Source: Escherichia phage vB_EcoM_phAPEC6. Taken from it: a DNA stretch of 64,000 nt. The position numbers were made by a program, and so were the translations under genes. The stretch lies in the sequence record MK817115.1; one strand, written 5' to 3'. The notes under the pieces were generated by a model. It was not told where the DNA came from. It did not search any database and was given only the letters and a program-made list of their open reading frames with translations. Below are positions 1 through 39,862 of the stretch, in pieces. Position 1 is the first letter of the stretch; each line of letters starts with the position of its first letter.

Positions 1-2
1 CT

Positions 3-2597
3 AAAGTTCAAAGTACTGAAGTTACAGTGTCTGCTCTAAATGCAACAAATGCAGTAGTTTCTGGTGATGTTTCAGCAGCAACAGCTTCAATCTCAGGTGC
101 AATTACTGGTGGGTCAGCAACACTATCTGGTGTTGGAACTGCTCTAAATGTAACTAATAACGCAACTGTTGGTGGTGTACTTACTGTTGGTTCTATTACT
201 TCAGCGGCAGAAAATGTATCCATTACTAAAAATACCGCGATTACTGGTAATTTAGCAGTATCTGGAACACTAACTGCGGGTGTTATTGATCTTAGCACAA
301 CTGATGTGTCTGTGAAGACATTAACTTCTCTAGGTGATGCAACCGTTCAAGGTAACTTAACTGTTGATGGTACTATTAACCTAAGTTCTGCAAACATCGT
401 CGGTGTAACACTAGAAAGTACTGGCTCCACTACCGTAGGTACTGATTTGATACTAACTACTGGTAACATTACAGGTAGTCCATCTATTTCTGGTAACTTA
501 GGTGTAACTGGCACTACAACTTTAACTGGTGCAACAACAGTTTCAAATACATTGAATACTGCTGGTAAACTAACAGTTAATGCTGGTGGAATTCAGGTTG
601 TTGCTGGTGGTATACAAGTTGATTCTGGAACTATTACTGCTTCTAGTGCTAATATTTCTGGTAGCTCAACACTTAATAGTGCTACTGTAACCACTACACT
701 AGGTGTTACTGGTGCAGCAAGTATGAATGGTGGTTTAACTGCTTCTACATTGGATGTAACAGGTGATAGTACAGTACAAAAACTAACTGTTAAGGGTGTA
801 TTTGTTCCTGAAGGTGGTTTGGACTTATCCGGTGCTGATCTTAGTGTGAATAGCGTAACTGCGGCAACCACATTAAGTGTTACTGGTGCTAGTACTCTAA
901 CTGGTGGTGTTTCCACTTCAACTGTTACTGCATCCGGTAAGGTAACCGCACAAGAACTAAGTACTGGTACATTGGATGTAACCACAAATGGAACTGTTGG
1001 TGGAACTTTAGGTGTAACTGGTAAAGCAACTGTTGGATCACTAGATTCAGGTGCAATCTCTGCAACATCTGGTACATTTAGTACTACACTAGATGTGACT
1101 GGTGCAGCAACCTTTGGTAATAATGTTAACATTACTGGTACATTAACCCCAGGTGCATTGGATTTAGCTAGTACTGATGTAGTTGCTAACAGTCTTTCTG
1201 TAGCTACAACTCTACATTCAGATGGCAACGCAACAATTGGTGGCACATTAGGCGTAACTGGTGCAGTATCTGCTCCATCAATCGCTCTTAATGGTGAAGG
1301 TGCTGCGTTAGCAGTTACTAATAACGCAACAATTGGTGGTACATTAGGTGTAACTGGTGCTACAACTTTAGGTTCTCTAACAACCTCTGGTGCAGTTAAA
1401 ACTGGTGCTGATGTTATTATCGGTACTAAAATTGGCGATCAACCAGAGACAGTTCAGATTTTCCCTAATACTTACATTGCTGGCTCCTTGCGTGTAGATG
1501 GTGGTATCAACGCTGATATTGACGTTAGTGGTCAAACAATTGAACCTTATGCAGTTGTTGCGGCGGACACTATTAGTGCAGCGGGTAATATTACTTCTGG
1601 TGCAGAGTTGATTTCCAAATCAGCAACTATTGGTGATGTTGGTTCACAAAACAACAACTTAACAATCAATGGTAACGTAGTTAACAACGGTAACTTTACA
1701 GTAACTGGTCTACTTAACGCAACACTAAACCAAGCAAACTCTGACGTGGCTGTTAAATCATTAACTGCAACCAACAGTGTTGCTGCTGGTACTAGTATTA
1801 CCGCAGGTACAAGTATTACTGCAACTGGTCTACTAAAAGGGAACACCCTTGAAGTAACTACTACTGGTTCATTTGGTGGTGCAGTAACAATGTCAAGTGG
1901 TGCTAACATTACTGGAACCGTTGGAATTACTTCTGGTAACCTAACTGTTGGTGGTGATATTTCTGCAACAGGTACTGCAACCCTAGCAGCAACTTCAGTA
2001 ACTACCATTACTACTTCTGGTGCAGCAACACTTGCTAGTGCATCTGTTACTGGAGCAGCAACAATCGGTGGTACTTTAACTGTTACTGGTTTAATGACTG
2101 CAAATGGTAGTGTTGTTTTAGGTGACGCTGCTGCTGATACATTAACTGTCAATGCAACATCTTCTTTCAAAGAAAATGCAGTATTTGATAAAGATGTAAC
2201 TGTAACTGGTCAATTAACAACTACTAATGCTGACCTAACTACTACAACAGTAACTACTAAAAAATATGATGTTATTCCTAATCAAGTAACTTCTTCTGTT
2301 ATCGCACCAACTGGTACTTGGACCCCAGACGGTACTAGCAACGTATACTTTATCACTCTAGATCAAGATACCACTCTAGCACCAATCACTGGTCTAATCG
2401 GTGGTGGTAAAGCATCTTCAGTATACATTTATGTGAAACAAGATGCAACAGGTAATAGAAACTTTACTACTGATGGTACTTATGCGGTTGTTGATGGCAC
2501 ACTGAACAAAACTGCAAACTCTGTAACTATCTACCAAGTCATTTATGACGGTGTGAGTCCAGTAACAGATATGTTTATTGCACAACGTACTGCTTAA
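3..2597 (+). CDS. Tail fibre-like structural protein, 5' partial (open reading frame continues past window start); Gly/Thr/Val-rich periodic repeats
   Basis: Frame is open from nt 3 (no upstream stop); 856+ aa of degenerate repeats (TxGxxTVGGTLGVTG-like); opposite-strand ORFs inside it are low-complexity artefacts. Confidence 0.6.
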   Translation, partial: KVQSTEVTVSALNATNAVVSGDVSAATASISGAITGGSATLSGVGTALNVTNNATVGGVLTVGSITSAAENVSITKNTAITGNLAVSGTLTAGVIDLSTTDVSVKTLTSLGDATVQGNLTVDGTINLSSANIVGVTLESTGSTTVGTDLILTTGNITGSPSISGNLGVTGTTTLTGATTVSNTLNTAGKLTVNAGGIQVVAGGIQVDSGTITASSANISGSSTLNSATVTTTLGVTGAASMNGGLTASTLDVTGDSTVQKLTVKGVFVPEGGLDLSGADLSVNSVTAATTLSVTGASTLTGGVSTSTVTASGKVTAQELSTGTLDVTTNGTVGGTLGVTGKATVGSLDSGAISATSGTFSTTLDVTGAATFGNNVNITGTLTPGALDLASTDVVANSLSVATTLHSDGNATIGGTLGVTGAVSAPSIALNGEGAALAVTNNATIGGTLGVTGATTLGSLTTSGAVKTGADVIIGTKIGDQPETVQIFPNTYIAGSLRVDGGINADIDVSGQTIEPYAVVAADTISAAGNITSGAELISKSATIGDVGSQNNNLTINGNVVNNGNFTVTGLLNATLNQANSDVAVKSLTATNSVAAGTSITAGTSITATGLLKGNTLEVTTTGSFGGAVTMSSGANITGTVGITSGNLTVGGDISATGTATLAATSVTTITTSGAATLASASVTGAATIGGTLTVTGLMTANGSVVLGDAAADTLTVNATSSFKENAVFDKDVTVTGQLTTTNADLTTTTVTTKKYDVIPNQVTSSVIAPTGTWTPDGTSNVYFITLDQDTTLAPITGLIGGGKASSVYIYVKQDATGNRNFTTDGTYAVVDGTLNKTANSVTIYQVIYDGVSPVTDMFIAQRTA

Positions 2598-34553: not shown

Positions 34554-35138
34554 TTATTTTGTAATGTTTAGTTTAGAAACGAAGTATTCTTTGGCTTCTT
34601 CATATGTCATTGAAGTATACATAGGATTCCATTTATCGTCAATATCGATAAGTACTTTAACTTCCATTACATCTTCTGGTGTATAGAATTGCCATGTATT
34701 GTGATCTGGCTCATAGTTAGGGTCCAGTACAAAAACCGTACCATCCTGACCATAAACTTCTCCATCCTCTAATAGCTCACGGAAGAAATCTTCTCCAGTA
34801 GTTGGGTCTTCGTATGCATTATAAAAACGAAAAACAACATTCTCAACATCTGTTCGGGTAGTACCATCGTCTTCATCATATTCCACCAAACGGTCCTGAT
34901 GAAATACTAGGTCAATTGCACCAATGCGAGGTTTATTATGTGGAGTTTTGATTTCTTGCTGGGAATTGTAATCAATACGTTCAGTACTGATGAATACTCC
35001 ACTAGGGGTAATTTCAATACCAGACACATTTTCTGGTGAATAGTAAGCGTCACACATGTCATCAATGTGCATGTGCTCATTATACACTTCCATTTCAGGA
35101 TTCTGCAACAACAGTGCTGCTAAGTCTTTTGCTTTCAA
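34554..35138 (-). CDS. Hypothetical protein, paralog of 35874-36521
   Basis: Shared MK..DLA.LLL..P..E.Y, TPSG.F and C-terminal YTP(E/D)D motifs. Confidence 0.5.
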   Translation of the reverse strand: MKAKDLAALLLQNPEMEVYNEHMHIDDMCDAYYSPENVSGIEITPSGVFISTERIDYNSQQEIKTPHNKPRIGAIDLVFHQDRLVEYDEDDGTTRTDVENVVFRFYNAYEDPTTGEDFFRELLEDGEVYGQDGTVFVLDPNYEPDHNTWQFYTPEDVMEVKVLIDIDDKWNPMYTSMTYEEAKEYFVSKLNITK

Positions 35139-35873: not shown

Positions 35874-36521
35874 TTATTTTTTAATTTTATCAATCATAGA
35901 AGGTGATACTTTTACATTGAATTCAGAATCAGGAAAATCTTTAGAAAATGAATCAATTTGTTCTTGTGAAAGTTCTTCTTTTTGTGGAAATAACATTTTA
36001 ACTAAATTTTTACCACATTCAATTGCTTCATCATACGACATAGTTTCCCATGTTCCATGCCAAGTACTAGGTTCATATTCTGTCAGTACAGAAATGAAAT
36101 CAATATCATCGGGTGTATACCAAACAGCATTTTGATTCCCTGATGGTGCTGATTGATTTTTACCTAATAAAACAATTGGCTTTTCATAAGGAATGTTAAA
36201 TATCAACCCAGATTCTAAGTTAAGAACAGTTTGAATAGATGAACCCTCCAATTTTGGAGTAATAGTACCATCCTTAAAGAAAATTTGTACATGACCCAAG
36301 AGCGGGGTTTCGTATGGTGTAAGTACATTTTCAGAAACTGATGTGGGTTTTACCGTTGTGAAAATGCCAGATGGGGTGACCATTAATTTATTATCAAAAT
36401 TCTGATAATGCAAGTCACTCTCTGCATCATAATGATAAATTTCTAGATTTGGTTGAGATAGTAGTAATTTTGCTAAATCATGAGATTTCATTTTATTTCT
36501 CCAAAAGAAAAGGAGAGTCAC
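35874..36521 (-). CDS. Hypothetical protein, paralog of 34554-35138
   Basis: See paralog motifs; followed by terminator hairpin. Confidence 0.5.
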   Translation of the reverse strand: MTLLFFWRNKMKSHDLAKLLLSQPNLEIYHYDAESDLHYQNFDNKLMVTPSGIFTTVKPTSVSENVLTPYETPLLGHVQIFFKDGTITPKLEGSSIQTVLNLESGLIFNIPYEKPIVLLGKNQSAPSGNQNAVWYTPDDIDFISVLTEYEPSTWHGTWETMSYDEAIECGKNLVKMLFPQKEELSQEQIDSFSKDFPDSEFNVKVSPSMIDKIKK

Positions 36522-36539: not shown

Positions 36540-36980
36540 TTATTGTAAAACTTTAAGTTTGTAAAGTGTTCCTTCAACAAAACTCATAATATCTTCTAAT
36601 GTGTTTACACTGCCGTAATCACCTGATTCTTCAAGCATATCATGAATTGCTCTACATTGCTCAACATATTCTTCAAGAATTGGTACACAATCTTCAATTG
36701 GTGTAAAACGATAACTATTACCAGTTCCAACTTGTAAAGCACCACGATTATTCATGATACCTTCAACAAATGCGTCTACATATTCTGGTAATTCTTTATA
36801 TAGTTCATCTAATTGTAAATGCTTTGTATAAAAATGACATTGTAAGTGCCAGTTATGTGCAGCAGAACTTAAAAACAAACTATTTTCAATAAAAGTTAAT
36901 AGTACTTCATCATACGAATTATCTTCTTCAGTACTTCCGATAAAGTCCATTACGTGTCGTAAATCATTAATATCTTCCAT
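36540..36980 (-). CDS. Hypothetical protein
   Basis: 146-aa ORF. Confidence 0.45.
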   Translation of the reverse strand: MEDINDLRHVMDFIGSTEEDNSYDEVLLTFIENSLFLSSAAHNWHLQCHFYTKHLQLDELYKELPEYVDAFVEGIMNNRGALQVGTGNSYRFTPIEDCVPILEEYVEQCRAIHDMLEESGDYGSVNTLEDIMSFVEGTLYKLKVLQ

Positions 36981-37012: not shown

Positions 37013-37441
37013 TTAGTTAATAATAAAGGTAATTTCAGGATTCATTTCAGAAACTGCATTGCGTTTACTTCTATCCCATAGTATTCTGTTATTATACAAA
37101 GAAGAATCACATACTACAAGTAAGCAATTTCTTAATCTACTTACAGTACTTTGATTATTTAAATCAGTTTCTGAAATAAAAAATACATTTTCAGGAACTA
37201 CTAAAGGAATAGATTTATCAAAAAACAAAACTACAATAGGTCTTGTTGTATGAACTGATTTAACGAAATCCAAAATACTATTATAAAAATTAGTTTCTTT
37301 AGTAATTACTGACGGATCTTTAATTCTTTTCAAATATTGCTGTGGTAATTGATGTTCGTCTTTTATCTGAAACTCAAAATATTCTTTGAATAACATTTGT
37401 GTTAATTCGGATTTATCGGATATTTTCGTTGTGTTACTCAT
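37013..37441 (-). CDS. Hypothetical protein
   Basis: 142-aa ORF; first gene downstream of the non-coding island. Confidence 0.45.
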   Translation of the reverse strand: MSNTTKISDKSELTQMLFKEYFEFQIKDEHQLPQQYLKRIKDPSVITKETNFYNSILDFVKSVHTTRPIVVLFFDKSIPLVVPENVFFISETDLNNQSTVSRLRNCLLVVCDSSLYNNRILWDRSKRNAVSEMNPEITFIIN

Positions 37442-38131
37442 TCACTTCGTTCTCTCGTAACTCAAGAAGTCACTGCGTTTACTTCGTAAACTAGTTCCTT
37501 CTGAAAATGATAATGTACTTTAAAAACTTGACGGGATTTGTTGAGGACTATTACATCCCCCCGCAGGGGAATGAAGGTAATAAAAAAGAGACAATTAAGT
37601 CTCTCTTGACGATGATGGCATCGGATATTATCGAATTGCGAATTTCTCAAATTTTGGACGGATCTTTCTTGTACCAAAATTTAGAGAGCGAAAGCGGGTT
37701 GCTCGGTTTCTCTCTATCGCAGTCATATGCAACGGTCGCTGGTCTTTTCATCAACAGCACTCAGTACTAACTCTATTCGATCAAAGTAGTACTTGTTCTC
37801 AAATTTTGGACGCAACTTTCTTGTAAAAATTGCGTCCGCTATCCTTGAACTCCCTTAGCAAATCTGGTAAGGTGCGAACCTTATACATCTATCTAGGAAC
37901 TCTCTGTATGCTTATCGGAGTTCTTTATACAGCCGTGTCGCCGTGATTCGTGGTCTTACATCGTGTTTGTTTGAATGCCAGTACTCTAACAGGTTTCTTC
38001 TGCTGTTCGCTACAACGGTAAAGCTCATCTATCCTTTACATTTTCAAGAGAAGTAGGTTCTCAGTGTCCATTTTTCAATGTCCGTTGTCATTTTCTATAT
38101 ACATTATATCATTGGAACATATAATGTCCCA
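37442..38131 (-). ncRNA. Candidate structured non-coding RNA locus (ORF-poor, GC-enriched, repeated hairpin modules)
   Basis: About 690 bp without a credible ORF in an otherwise gap-free gene array; direct repeat TTCTCAAATTTTGGACG...CTTTCTTGTA at 37644-37673 and 37796-37825, each forming a hairpin; additional hairpins; locally elevated GC. Confidence 0.4.
38103..38130 (-). promoter_or_regulatory. Weak sigma70-like promoter candidate facing into the non-coding island
   Basis: Minus strand GGGACA, 16 nt, TGaTATAAT; -35 matches 4 of 6. Confidence 0.25.
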
Positions 38132-38530
38132 TTACATGTATACTTTTTTAAAATCCTTAGAACAACGATCAAAAATTGTGTTTATGAATTCAACATCTTC
38201 GATAATATTCGAATCGTTAGCAACATTTTCATTTCTTGTCGTGTTCCTATATGTGTGTTCAGGATGATTGTATACCACCTTGACTACATTATTTAGGTCT
38301 ATAAAATTTGACGTTTTTTGCGTATATGAAGCCTGAAGCTTGATGAGTTTACCATCATTCTCAAGATTGGTTTTATGAATTAGTTCTTCAATACCAGTTA
38401 AATGGCTATAGCTATCTTTTTCTTTTACAAAAGTAATAGTAACAAGAACTGCTTTCTCATCTCCCATATCGGAAATGTTTTTTACAGCACTGATAATTTC
38501 TAAGTTTGAAAAATCTAATTCTTTAAGCAT
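38132..38530 (-). CDS. Hypothetical protein
   Basis: 132-aa ORF. Confidence 0.45.
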   Translation of the reverse strand: MLKELDFSNLEIISAVKNISDMGDEKAVLVTITFVKEKDSYSHLTGIEELIHKTNLENDGKLIKLQASYTQKTSNFIDLNNVVKVVYNHPEHTYRNTTRNENVANDSNIIEDVEFINTIFDRCSKDFKKVYM

Positions 38531-38940: not shown

Positions 38941-39552
38941 TCAATCATGTTTATTCAATTTCTTCTGTTCTTTTTTCAAAGCTTTCATATGACGACCAAA
39001 CTCTCGAACATGCCATAGATGATCAGTTTCCCATAATTCTTGACGTAACCTACGTTCTTCTAGTAGTTTCGACTTGTCAATGTTATTTTTCTTTTTTTGT
39101 ACATTAAAGAAATTATTCATATGTTCTTGGAGAAGATTACGACCTTTAACTTTCTCAAGAAACTCATCAACTGTTTCAGTTTTATTCGAACGTAGTTGAT
39201 TACATCTGGAGCACATAGTATTAAAGTTTGACTCTAAATCAGGTCCACCCTTAGATGCCAGATGATTATGGTCAACTGTCATTAAAACTTCATAAAGACC
39301 ACATACAGCATATACATTTAAATGTGGTTTACCATATACTGGATCAGAACATAATGAACGTTCAATGCGTACTTCAGTAGCTTCAATCCCACATGCCACG
39401 CATTTTGGATTCTTAACAAAAGTAAGAACTTTTTGTGGGAAATATCGAAAAGTAATACCATTTAAAGTGTAGCGTTTCATCTTAGTACTTCGTTGATTTA
39501 ATTCTTCAAGAAGTGATAATTTTGTCGTATAGTAAACATGATATTTGTTCAT
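38941..39552 (-). CDS. HNH endonuclease (free-standing homing-endonuclease-like)
   Basis: HNH motif VDHNHLASKGGPDLESNFNTMCSRCNQ; start moved to internal Met (MNKYHVYY) to remove overlap with upstream gene. Confidence 0.7.
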   Translation of the reverse strand: MNKYHVYYTTKLSLLEELNQRSTKMKRYTLNGITFRYFPQKVLTFVKNPKCVACGIEATEVRIERSLCSDPVYGKPHLNVYAVCGLYEVLMTVDHNHLASKGGPDLESNFNTMCSRCNQLRSNKTETVDEFLEKVKGRNLLQEHMNNFFNVQKKKNNIDKSKLLEERRLRQELWETDHLWHVREFGRHMKALKKEQKKLNKHD

Positions 39553-39553
39553 T

Positions 39554-39862
39554 TTATTCCTTGATATTGATTTTAATATCTTTACCTTGTAAATCACGAA
39601 TAGTTTTAATCAATGCGTCGTGTTTTAAAGCACATTCATTGTAGACTGCATCCCAACGAGTAAGTACTTTAAGAATTTCTGCACCATCATAACCTTTAAA
39701 ACCATTTTTGTCAATCATAATTTTTTGTGGTAGAGGTGTATCATCATCACATCTTTCTAACAGAATTTCTTGTTTAATTGGTGCGGGGGATTGTAGTTTT
39801 ACTTGCTCGGCACACCCACTTATAATTAAAAAAGAAATCATTGGAACTAATAATTTTTTCAT
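39554..39862 (-). CDS. Lipoprotein, candidate o-spanin
   Basis: Signal peptide with lipobox IISGC; ATGA overlap with upstream membrane/coiled-coil gene. Confidence 0.45.
   Translation of the reverse strand: MKKLLVPMISFLIISGCAEQVKLQSPAPIKQEILLERCDDDTPLPQKIMIDKNGFKGYDGAEILKVLTRWDAVYNECALKHDALIKTIRDLQGKDIKINIKE

Follow-up and report, generated by a model that had tools for sequence, protein, structure and literature searches.

The 64,000-nucleotide (nt) stretch of DNA from Escherichia phage vB_EcoM_phAPEC6 analysed here (MK817115.1, hereafter the window) contains a conserved unit, from ~37527 to 38130 on the minus strand, that comparison with its relatives firmly shows to be an independently promoted gene for a large, pseudoknotted non-coding RNA (ncRNA) under strong purifying selection on structure. 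We consider it likely that the gene is transcribed on its own into a structured RNA of ~515–570 nt that acts in trans and belongs to a family without a match in Rfam 15 or in the literature searched. Identity of the window to Escherichia phage PBECO4 and related phages of the genus Asteriusvirus, jumbo myoviruses of ~350 kilobases (kb), is ~99.9%; a coordinate in the PBECO4 record NC_027364 equals the window coordinate plus 445.

The unit lies in an interval free of credible open reading frames (ORFs), 37442–38131, flanked by two minus-strand genes (37013–37441 and 38132–38530). ORFs inside the interval are short, 30–87 amino acids (aa), and neither of the two longest is conserved: the frame of the 87-aa plus-strand ORF is kept without early stops in 0 of 57 relatives and that of the 71-aa minus-strand ORF in 0 of 56, with a median of 7 codons before the first stop. 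GC content is 0.38–0.42 over 37500–38100 versus 0.24–0.33 in the flanks. A preliminary description had singled out 37442–38131 for its lack of genes and its GC enrichment and had proposed a structured ncRNA, other than a transfer RNA (tRNA), read from the minus strand. All of this stands, now backed by promoter conservation, covariation, wobble asymmetry and the lack of a conserved frame, although the limits were too wide, as ~37527–38130 is conserved and 37442–37526 is not. It had also held that a protein frame conserved in related phages, or hairpins lacking covariation, would tell against an RNA; we found no such frame in relatives, and the hairpins do covary. In GenBank records including JP4, SHEFM2K, SD-2_S15 and WPEC3, two to six small 'hypothetical proteins' are annotated over the orthologous gene; none of these frames is conserved, and the annotations are probably over-predictions.

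A sensitive blastn search of 50,697 phage records with positions 37300–38300 as query matches distant jumbo phages at 66–72% identity, over query positions ~214–762 only, which correspond to the ORF-free core and not to the flanking genes. Because a non-coding stretch that outlasts its coding neighbours is a usual signature of selection on the nucleic acid itself, this pattern points to a functional RNA or DNA element. The matched phages include GAP32, CBB, XbC2, fHe-Yen9-03/04, Serratia BF, the Erwinia pEa_SNUABM phages, Hallingskeid, Kaldavass, Munch, SE_PL, EJP2 and Kae01; in distant phages, the matched stretch sits in an unannotated gap of 700–900 base pairs (bp) or under tiny, doubtful coding sequences. 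IMG/VR and the JGI/ENA metagenomes were screened first with an invariant 16-mer and afterwards with a gapped pattern of 23 positions, and matches were confirmed by an nhmmer profile that spans 37482–38134 in the window. The resulting family comprises 71 unique near-full-length sequences, or 58 after collapse at 97% identity, from RaK2-like jumbo phages (Asterius-, Mimas-, Eneladus- and Alcyoneusvirus) and their metagenomic kin. Confirmed members lie on contigs of 350–370 kb, or on smaller ones that look phage-like in the genes sampled.

Every RaK2-like jumbo phage examined carries 2–4 copies, and the paralogues have diverged from one another. The window holds one copy; 121Q has 3, near 192.7, 247.4 and 326.6 kb, one 366-kb metagenomic genome has 4 and another 3, and Serratia BF and RaK2 have 2 each. 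Copies are spread 55–80 kb apart, and all pattern matches within one genome fall on the same strand. Their neighbours are unrelated: some paralogues stand between hypothetical genes co-directional with the RNA, one stands between the baseplate hub and EndoVII genes and runs against them (convergent), recombination/replication genes (EndoVII and a gp46/47-like nuclease) adjoin a paralogue, and one of the RaK2 copies follows a sigma-factor gene. No neighbouring protein is conserved at the copies compared, and the genes that follow the RNA in the window and in GAP32 are not similar to each other. A cis-regulatory leader is unlikely because the contexts of the paralogues are unrelated and one is convergent. 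Two irregular members are suggested by nhmmer: contig OGVK01004308 appears to hold two family copies in tandem, ~600 nt apart (L138:139-1580), and the second RaK2 copy appears shortened, with the middle of the profile missing (L065:4318-4944).

The gene begins with a conserved promoter. In a promoter scan, the best promoter-like site of the region pairs a -35-like element, GGGACA (38125–38130, minus strand), with the extended -10 element TGATATAAT of the TGn type (38103–38111, minus strand) 16 nt downstream, which bears out the TGn-extended -10 that the preliminary description had seen pointing into the locus; the number of promoter-like sites is itself not elevated (6 against a shuffled expectation of 4.2 +/- 2.2). 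All 58 members keep a -10 element of the form T[GC]nTA[TC]A[AC]T (TGn in 48), and a TGRRAY-like -35 (TGGGACA, TGAAACG, TGGAAC and similar; family consensus TGRRAC) stands at the right distance in 47 of 58. CBB and GAP32 have a second promoter class with -35 TGAAACG and a classic TATA -10, found at 18 sites, mostly upstream of DNA-synthesis genes (PMC5259590). By its sequence elements the family promoter matches this 'divergent RpoD-like' class; in the CBB copy itself it reads ATGAAACG, 18 nt, TGGTATAAT. Because this class is reported mostly upstream of DNA-synthesis genes, co-expression with them is suggested, and the RNA would probably be made in the middle phase of infection. In the Mimasvirus copies, a terminator of the upstream gene lies just ahead of the RNA promoter.

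Promoter conservation, wobble counts on covarying pairs and the fold z-score agree, and we therefore assign the RNA to the minus strand. On covariation-supported pairs read in minus sense, G·U cells outnumber A·C cells by 155 to 23 in the 3′ domain and by 39 to 5 in the 5′ domain, and canonical pairing reaches 95.5% and 96.1%, respectively, compared with 85.9% and 92.4% in plus sense. Several columns alternate G·U with A-U or G-C, which is workable in minus sense only. The fold z-score of the window sequence is -4.16 on the minus strand (0 of 100 shuffles as good) and -2.44 on the plus strand. Choosing the strand by minimum free energy was dropped, as whole-molecule and windowed comparisons across 22 members were inconsistent. 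Also rejected was a plus-strand promoter reading of the conserved CTTGACG motifs described below, for which the -10 elements are poor and not conserved in Mimasvirus.

The RNA is predicted to span 37527–38096 (minus strand). Its 5′ end is placed at ~38096 from the -10 element, and its 3′ end at either ~37582, at a U-run, or ~37527, after a conserved 3′ module, giving a predicted mature RNA of ~515 nt or ~570 nt. The U-run belongs to a terminator-like hairpin, GAGAC/GUCUC followed by U6 (37582–37605, stem 37605–37588, minus strand), in which 4 of 5 pairs covary. The scan calls minus-strand terminators at the corresponding positions of the CBB and EJP2 copies but not in the window, perhaps because the stem in the window can extend into the U-run.

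The core of the evidence is the secondary structure, which has 85 base pairs in 17 helices, including a 7-bp pseudoknot of the type termed H-type, with compensatory double changes at 49 pairs. The family was aligned in minus sense as two domains, the 3′ domain with 26 sequences (alignment A2) and the 5′ domain with 31 (A3). In the 3′ domain, ten helices that we specified comprise 55 pairs including the pseudoknot, and 95.5% of cells form standard pairs, compared with 41–50% in a slid control in which the 3′ partners are moved by 1–3 columns; 30 pairs have changed on both sides (184 cells), and 0 of 500 column shuffles reach any observed measure. In the 5′ domain, the RNAalifold consensus has 7 helices and 30 pairs, 96.1% paired versus 35–44% in the slid controls, a contrast that in both domains is somewhat flattering, as the 5′ fold was derived by RNAalifold from the same alignment and the 3′ helices were chosen by inspecting theirs; here 19 pairs show double changes and 0 of 500 shuffles reach the observed values. 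The double-change counts are independent of how the helices were chosen. As the members are phylogenetically related, the shuffle control overstates significance, a bias from which the slid-partner control and the distinct compensatory pair types are free. The MAFFT alignments are not structure-aware, so the variable hairpins (Px, the outer stem of Hb and the 5′ leader hairpins) are under-counted. Insertions and deletions fall in hairpins and are not multiples of three.

Following the RNA from its 5′ end, all helices being on the minus strand, hairpin P2 (38032–38051) presents the conserved loop GAAAAUGUA and shows double compensatory changes in 5 of 5 pairs, with 96% of cells paired. Hairpin P3 (38009–38024), preceded by a conserved GAUGAG, is 100% paired and 2 of its 3 pairs covary. 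Helix P4, ACAGC/GCUGU (37929–38006; 100% paired, 3 of 5 pairs covarying), encloses helix P5, CUGU/ACGG (37992–37941; 99% paired), and a variable insert. Hairpin P6, GAACUC/GAGUUC (37897–37923), has double changes in 6 of 6 pairs, and hairpin P7, UAAG/CUUA (37868–37883), which follows an invariant GAUAGA, is 97% paired with 2 of 4 pairs covarying. The junction GCUAAGGGAG (37846–37859) contains an AAGGGA that is invariant in the alignments, the remainder being nearly so. The partner of its GGG (37854–37852) is ambiguous between CCU at 38057–38055 and CCC at 37535–37533, a choice on which an invariant GGG allows no covariation. Helix Px joins 37850–37847 with 37798–37795.

Hairpin Hb (37763–37793) has an inner stem that is 99% paired, with 4 of 5 pairs covarying, and its loop, AUCGAAU (37781–37775), is the 5′ strand of the pseudoknot. 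The 3′ strand, AUUCGAU, lies ~140 nt away at 37630–37636, and the resulting 7 bp are 99.5% paired, with double changes in 6 of 7 pairs. Variants of the two strands include GUCGAAU/AUUCGAC, AUUGUAU/AUACAAU, CUUGAAU/AUUCAAG, UUCGAAU/AUUCGAA and UUCAUGU/ACAUGAA. Paralogues in one genome carry different, internally matched pairs: strands from the same copy match at 6–7 of 7 positions, and strands from different paralogues at 4–6 of 7 in all combinations but one. Between the two strands lie hairpin Hc, UGCUG/CAGCG (37737–37759), in which 4 of 5 pairs covary and a U·G to C-G exchange fits the minus sense only and which is followed by the invariant GACCGUUGC, and helix H3, UGCGA/UCGCA (37637–37721; 100% paired), which encloses He and H4. 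Helix He, GAGAG/CUUUC (37714–37690; 100% paired), has an almost invariant 15-nt loop, AAACCGAGCAACCCG in the window, and a middle pair that is G·U in 21 sequences and A-U in 5. Helix H4, CUCUC/GAGAA (37688–37644), is 94% paired. An RNAalifold helix, GUUGC/GYGAU, was dropped in favour of the covarying UGCGA/UCGCA helix.

On the 3′ side of the pseudoknot, hairpin Hg (37605–37622; 89% paired) ends in a direct motif, CGUCAAG (37611–37605), and is followed by the terminator-like hairpin. Beyond that, the near-universal C4/G4 hairpin, UUCAUUCCCC-UGCG-GGGGGAUGUA (37552–37575), was located in 56 of 58 relatives and is 91% paired; here too a U·G to C-G exchange fits the minus sense only. Between the helices lie invariant or near-invariant unpaired blocks, namely GAUAGA, the AAGGGA within GCUAAGGGAG, GACCGUUGC and CGGCAAUG, and the near-invariant 15-nt loop has the family form AAAC(A/C)G(A/G)GCAACCCG. 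A candidate second pseudoknot would pair GUUGC (37731–37727) with GCAAC in the He loop; the bases of both strands are invariant in this set and give covariation no purchase. All hairpins named in the preliminary description are present: AGAGAC/GTCTCT (37588–37605), the C4/G4 hairpin and AGTACTA/TAGTACT (37763–37793) are conserved with compensatory changes, and ATTTTGG/CCAAAAT and GGACGCAA/TTGCGTCC form part of an optional module inserted at two sites.

That module accounts for the direct repeat also seen earlier, whose arms, 37644–37681 and 37796–37831, are 89% identical over 38 nt (E ~1e-7 within the window). It is a hairpin with the consensus ...ACAAUAUAG(A/U)UCCGUCCAAAAUU..., inserted into two helices and present at one, both or neither site depending on the member. 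Copy 1, GGACGCAA...UUGCGUCC (37808–37837, minus strand), lies inside Px and is one arm of the repeat; copy 2, AAAUUUUGG...CCAAAAUUU (37649–37682, minus strand), lies inside H4 and is the other. The direct motif at the end of Hg likewise has a second copy, CGUCAAG at 37527–37533 (minus strand), at the end of the conserved 3′ module, so that the two, which read CTTGACG on the plus strand, flank the hairpin with its U-run and the C4/G4 hairpin. Where the motif differs between lineages, both copies have changed alike (CGUCAG, CGUCAAG, in RaK2 CUUCAAG and in a divergent subfamily ACGAAG, each present twice), with exceptions at two loci, L062 and L133. The paired motifs might each bind the same lineage-specific factor, or mark two sites of processing. 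Alternate pairing of both motifs with the 5′ strand of Hg was discarded, as it fails in the window's own sequence.

The divergent subfamily, represented by six metagenomic loci (L080, L083, L085, L101, L106 and L119), keeps the 3′ domain and the same promoter type and has an unrelated 5′ domain. Because it swaps one domain and retains the other, we regard the 3′ domain as the universal core. Two of the six loci were checked and look phage-like, and one of the contigs also encodes a Thg1-like tRNA-His guanylyltransferase.

The RNA unit also occurs in bacteria. Among 5,426 complete E. coli genomes, a sensitive search finds it in two chromosomes, with 79% of the query aligned at 75.8% identity. 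In E. coli LR-29-1 (NZ_AP027515.1, locus L139), the copy (L139:11835-12544) lies in a ~10.7-kb island between ffs and ybaA (L139:7800-18500) and is complete, with the promoter, the hairpin plus U-run and the C4/G4 hairpin. Also in the island are a tyrosine integrase split by IS3, a serine invertase, several hypothetical genes and an mSLOG-DUF4326/DUF488/DuOB trio, the DuOB of which matches PDC-M45A, a candidate defence family in PADLOC. Of the 5,426 genomes, 91 contain a related island, and in only 2 does it include the RNA; the corresponding slot of strain S1-ESP-03-A (L144) is taken by a ResIII/DEAD-like protein of 499 aa, whose annotation is type III restriction R subunit. Just downstream of the island RNA, a conserved non-coding stretch in an AT-rich setting (L139:12860-12980) has repeated ATCGATCG(TT) units; it is also found in RNA-less sister islands and could be an island origin or operator.

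Three more bacterial copies emerge from a scan of 100,044 species-representative genomes. The copy in Silvania hatchlandensis (NZ_JAMGZK010000045, L140:7674-8406) has a CI-like S24 repressor on one side and a large serine recombinase on the other, with a UvrD-like helicase, DarT, an ADP-ribosylglycohydrolase and a resolvase/invertase similar to that of the E. coli island within 6 kb; an ADP-ribosylglycohydrolase is also found two genes downstream of the RNA in phages XbC2 (L007) and Kaldavass (L004). Of four copies counted on bacterial contigs in addition to the 58 members, at least two are on integrase-bearing islands. Bacterial copies keep the fold, the E. coli one retaining 80 of 85 pairs and the Silvania one 72 of 79. 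Among phage copies, the Eneladusvirus paralogue at the baseplate-hub locus is closest to the E. coli copy (80.6%). Two LR-29-1 island proteins that were tested (303 aa and 257 aa) have no homologues in jumbo phages; from these two, the RNA cassette alone appears common to the island and the jumbo phages. A search of plasmids found no copy.

Such an RNA would work in trans as a folded molecule, either as a scaffold or ligand for a partner or by self-assembly in the manner of the ROOL and GOLLD RNAs, because a multi-helix architecture with long invariant loops is what ribonucleoprotein scaffolds, ribozymes, ROOL and GOLLD share. It does not look like an antisense regulator or antisense small RNA (sRNA) or a cis leader; the sRNA suggested in the preliminary description is hard to reconcile with ~550 nt and 17 helices, a size well beyond that of usual base-pairing sRNAs. 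Intact copies are found in variable cargo slots of integrase-bearing islands that otherwise hold defence-type genes, and the activity of the RNA therefore probably bears on phage–host or phage–satellite conflict, in which the RNA would be something worth mimicking, hijacking or deploying. Several points weigh against this interpretation. The transcript, its ends and its abundance are all inferred from sequence, and the neighbouring genes indicate no partner protein, ligand or activity. Only 30 of 56 members have the hairpin with its U-run, and ~55 nt are conserved beyond it, so that the 3′ end has two candidate positions. Some helix-end positions carry wobbles compatible with the plus strand (the 23 and 5 A·C cells given above), and windowed folding energies prefer different strands in different segments. 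The replication-origin explanation discussed below counts against it as well.

A more ambitious version, which we rate as less likely than not, makes this large 'ornate' RNA class a component of conflict systems in its own right. The 2–4 paralogues, with their mutually orthogonal 7-bp contacts, would then form paralogue-specific assemblies, perhaps through intermolecular pairing as in ROOL and GOLLD, and the island copy, under its phage-type promoter, would be switched on by an infecting phage. Once induced, it could serve as an RNA-only decoy or competitor in defence, or represent the hijacking by a satellite of a phage function that the RNA serves.

Each copy might instead be an RNA-primed replication origin, the main rival explanation, which we judge unlikely. 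The structured transcript would form a persistent RNA–DNA hybrid near the conserved 3′ module and prime leading-strand synthesis, as ColE1 RNA II or the T4 oriF/oriG transcripts do (a middle promoter with an unwinding element), and islands would carry a copy so that an infecting jumbo phage replicates them. The presence of 2–4 copies in one orientation, 55–80 kb apart, fits this scheme, as do a promoter class reported mostly upstream of DNA-synthesis genes, the two lineage-covarying direct motifs around the hairpin and U-run, which are placed as iteron-like protein sites would be, the paralogue next to EndoVII and the gp46/47-like nuclease, and the carriage of the unit by islands, given that satellites commonly borrow cis-acting sites from their helper phage. 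Judged as a T4-type R-loop origin, however, the locus has a plausible promoter class followed by a region that is GC-enriched and structured rather than an AT-rich unwinding element. Further, 17 covarying helices, a pseudoknot and long invariant loops over ~500 nt far exceed the needs of known origin transcripts, the exchange of a whole 5′ domain around a retained 3′ fold in the divergent subfamily is typical of modular functional RNAs, and no initiator gene travels with the unit.

That the conservation acts on DNA, for instance on repeats bound by a protein, a site for packaging or recombination, or a structured signal in single-stranded DNA, is very unlikely. The co-varying direct motifs, with their CTTGACG reading on the plus strand, could be taken this way, and G·T wobbles are tolerated in single-stranded DNA, so the wobble asymmetry alone is no proof of RNA; but a promoter pointing into the unit is kept in 58 of 58 members, about half have a terminator-like hairpin and U-run on the same strand, and selection on a duplex site would preserve neither compensatory pairing across 85 pairs nor a pseudoknot. 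Less probable still is a mobile ribozyme or intron remnant (an ORF-less group I/II intron or similar) spread to several sites. The RNA is large, pseudoknotted and multi-copy, full units have moved between phages and bacterial islands, and the window has an HNH endonuclease gene ~800 nt upstream; against this, no Rfam intron or ribozyme matches even at E ≤10, each copy has its own promoter and stands between complete genes, with no split gene or flanking exons, and the HNH gene is absent at other copies. Least credible is a cis-regulatory leader or attenuator of the downstream 142-aa gene, or a decayed or overlooked protein-coding gene: the unit runs the same way as its neighbours in the window and stops ~85 nt short of the next start codon, and some GenBank records annotate small proteins here, but the downstream genes differ at every paralogous and orthologous site and are convergent at one, neither ORF is kept in any of the 57 and 56 relatives, and the insertions and deletions sit in hairpins and ignore the reading frame.

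The proteins encoded around the window copy are a DUF7325 protein directly upstream of the RNA (38132–38530, minus strand), one without a known family, and the free-standing 218-aa HNH endonuclease (38941–39597, minus strand). On the other side, 36540–36980 (minus strand) is the gene called 'starvation-inducible transcriptional regulator' in PBECO4, with a match to DUF5856 and a weak one to a ferritin-like domain. Two hypothetical proteins of 194 and 215 aa (34554–35138 and 35874–36521, minus strand) have the motifs DLAxLLL, TPSG(V/I)F, YTP(E/D)D and MxYxEA in common and, judged from their translations only, look like tandem paralogues. Further away, positions 1–2100 (plus strand) contain dense imperfect direct repeats of 27–58 nt, with GGTGTAACTGGTGC-type units at spacings that are multiples of 3, which suggests a gene for a repeat-rich, fibre-like protein at the left end. 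Two direct-repeat pairs of 70–75 nt with 73–79% identity, 18399–18468/19183–19252 (784 nt apart) and 28312–28386/28718–28792 (406 nt apart), are probably adjacent paralogous genes.

Past examples of new large structured RNA classes in bacteria and phages have led to new biochemistry. This one sits in culturable jumbo phages of E. coli, Klebsiella, Salmonella, Erwinia and Serratia that are already candidates for therapy or biocontrol, and it is therefore genetically testable now. Its multi-copy state, dedicated phage promoter class, strongly supported pseudoknot and transfer as an intact cassette to islands point to a strongly selected function in phage–host or phage–satellite conflict, a field in which RNA-only players are barely known. 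The family also corrects the annotation of dozens of GenBank records, in which the gene is a 700–900-bp gap or is covered by spurious 'hypothetical proteins'.

Searches against known RNAs return no relative. ARAGORN predicts no tRNA or transfer-messenger RNA (tmRNA) in the whole window and no tRNA in 18 loci carrying copies, in keeping with the earlier failure to see a tRNA cloverleaf, and Rfam 15 yields no match at the gathering threshold in the 64-kb window, only noise at E ≤10 in the 1-kb region and none at E ≤1 in 7 other members. A literature search found no description of the family, with a report in a subscription journal remaining possible. On these searches, the family appears new relative to Rfam 15 and the literature covered. 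Several partial resemblances were set aside. An 11-nt identity to E. coli tmRNA and an RNase P CR-I-like string both lie on the plus strand, the wrong one, and lack Rfam support, and the likeness of GAUGAG-helix-GAA to a hammerhead core has variable key positions, wrong spacing and no Rfam support. Group I/II introns and small self-cleaving ribozymes were rejected for want of an Rfam match and on the position of the copies, under their own promoter between complete unrelated genes. The retron-like ncRNA (msr-msd) raised in the preliminary description has no support either, as the PBECO4 annotation shows no reverse transcriptase up to 6 kb away in both directions.

Among known systems, ColE1 RNA II and the T4 oriF/oriG transcripts resemble the RNA in being promoter-driven non-coding transcripts of ~500 nt (here predicted), and its multi-copy state may be listed as a further likeness. 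T4 origins use a middle-class promoter, and the promoter class of the RNA is found mostly upstream of DNA-synthesis genes. Unlike those systems, the family has no identified conserved antisense partner (an RNA I analogue) or AT-rich unwinding element, and its structural conservation is much greater. The phi29 pRNA is a phage-encoded structured RNA in which covarying loop–loop complementarity mediates assembly; it is, however, ~170 nt long, occurs in single copy and is confined to phi29-like packaging motors; neither its sequence nor its structure resembles those of the RNA described here, which has no link to packaging genes. In the related Pseudomonas jumbo phage PA5oct, RNA-seq defines four unexplained ncRNAs of 236–619 nt, ncRNA001–004 (PMC7318152). 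These too lie in ORF-free regions of a jumbo phage and are transcribed, whereas the present RNA is predicted; the one compared, ncRNA004 (619 nt), has no detectable homology to the family.

Large structured RNA classes of bacteria and phages are rare, the usual list being OLE, GOLLD, ROOL, HEARO and raiA. The Rfam covariance models of OLE, GOLLD and ROOL give no match in the window or in 7 other members, and the closest analogues are GOLLD and ROOL, by likeness of kind and not by membership. Like both, the family is carried by phages or phage-like contigs. ROOL (Rumen-Originating, Ornate, Large) RNA, at ~580 nt, is similar in size to the ~550 nt here, occurs in phages and prophages, and likewise has many helices, a covarying loop interaction and no known protein partner; it differs in fold, in its association with tRNA islands and in its Rfam model, which does not match. 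GOLLD is, similarly, a large (>500 nt), highly structured, pseudoknotted and phage-encoded ncRNA without an assigned function, but its sequence and helix layout are unrelated, its Rfam model finds no match, and the RNA described here is multi-copy in each genome, is found in enterobacterial jumbo myoviruses and does not lie beside tRNA genes. GOLLD combines a universally conserved 3′ domain with a replaceable 5′ domain, and the covarying 'tertiary' kissing loop of ROOL proved to be intermolecular (bioRxiv 10.1101/2024.12.08.627333). The present family has the same arrangement of a conserved 3′ and a replaceable 5′ domain. By analogy with ROOL, its 7-bp pseudoknot could be an intermolecular contact, and this paralogue-specific loop interaction is the sole hint here of an RNA-only, homo-oligomeric nanocage of the GOLLD and ROOL kind.

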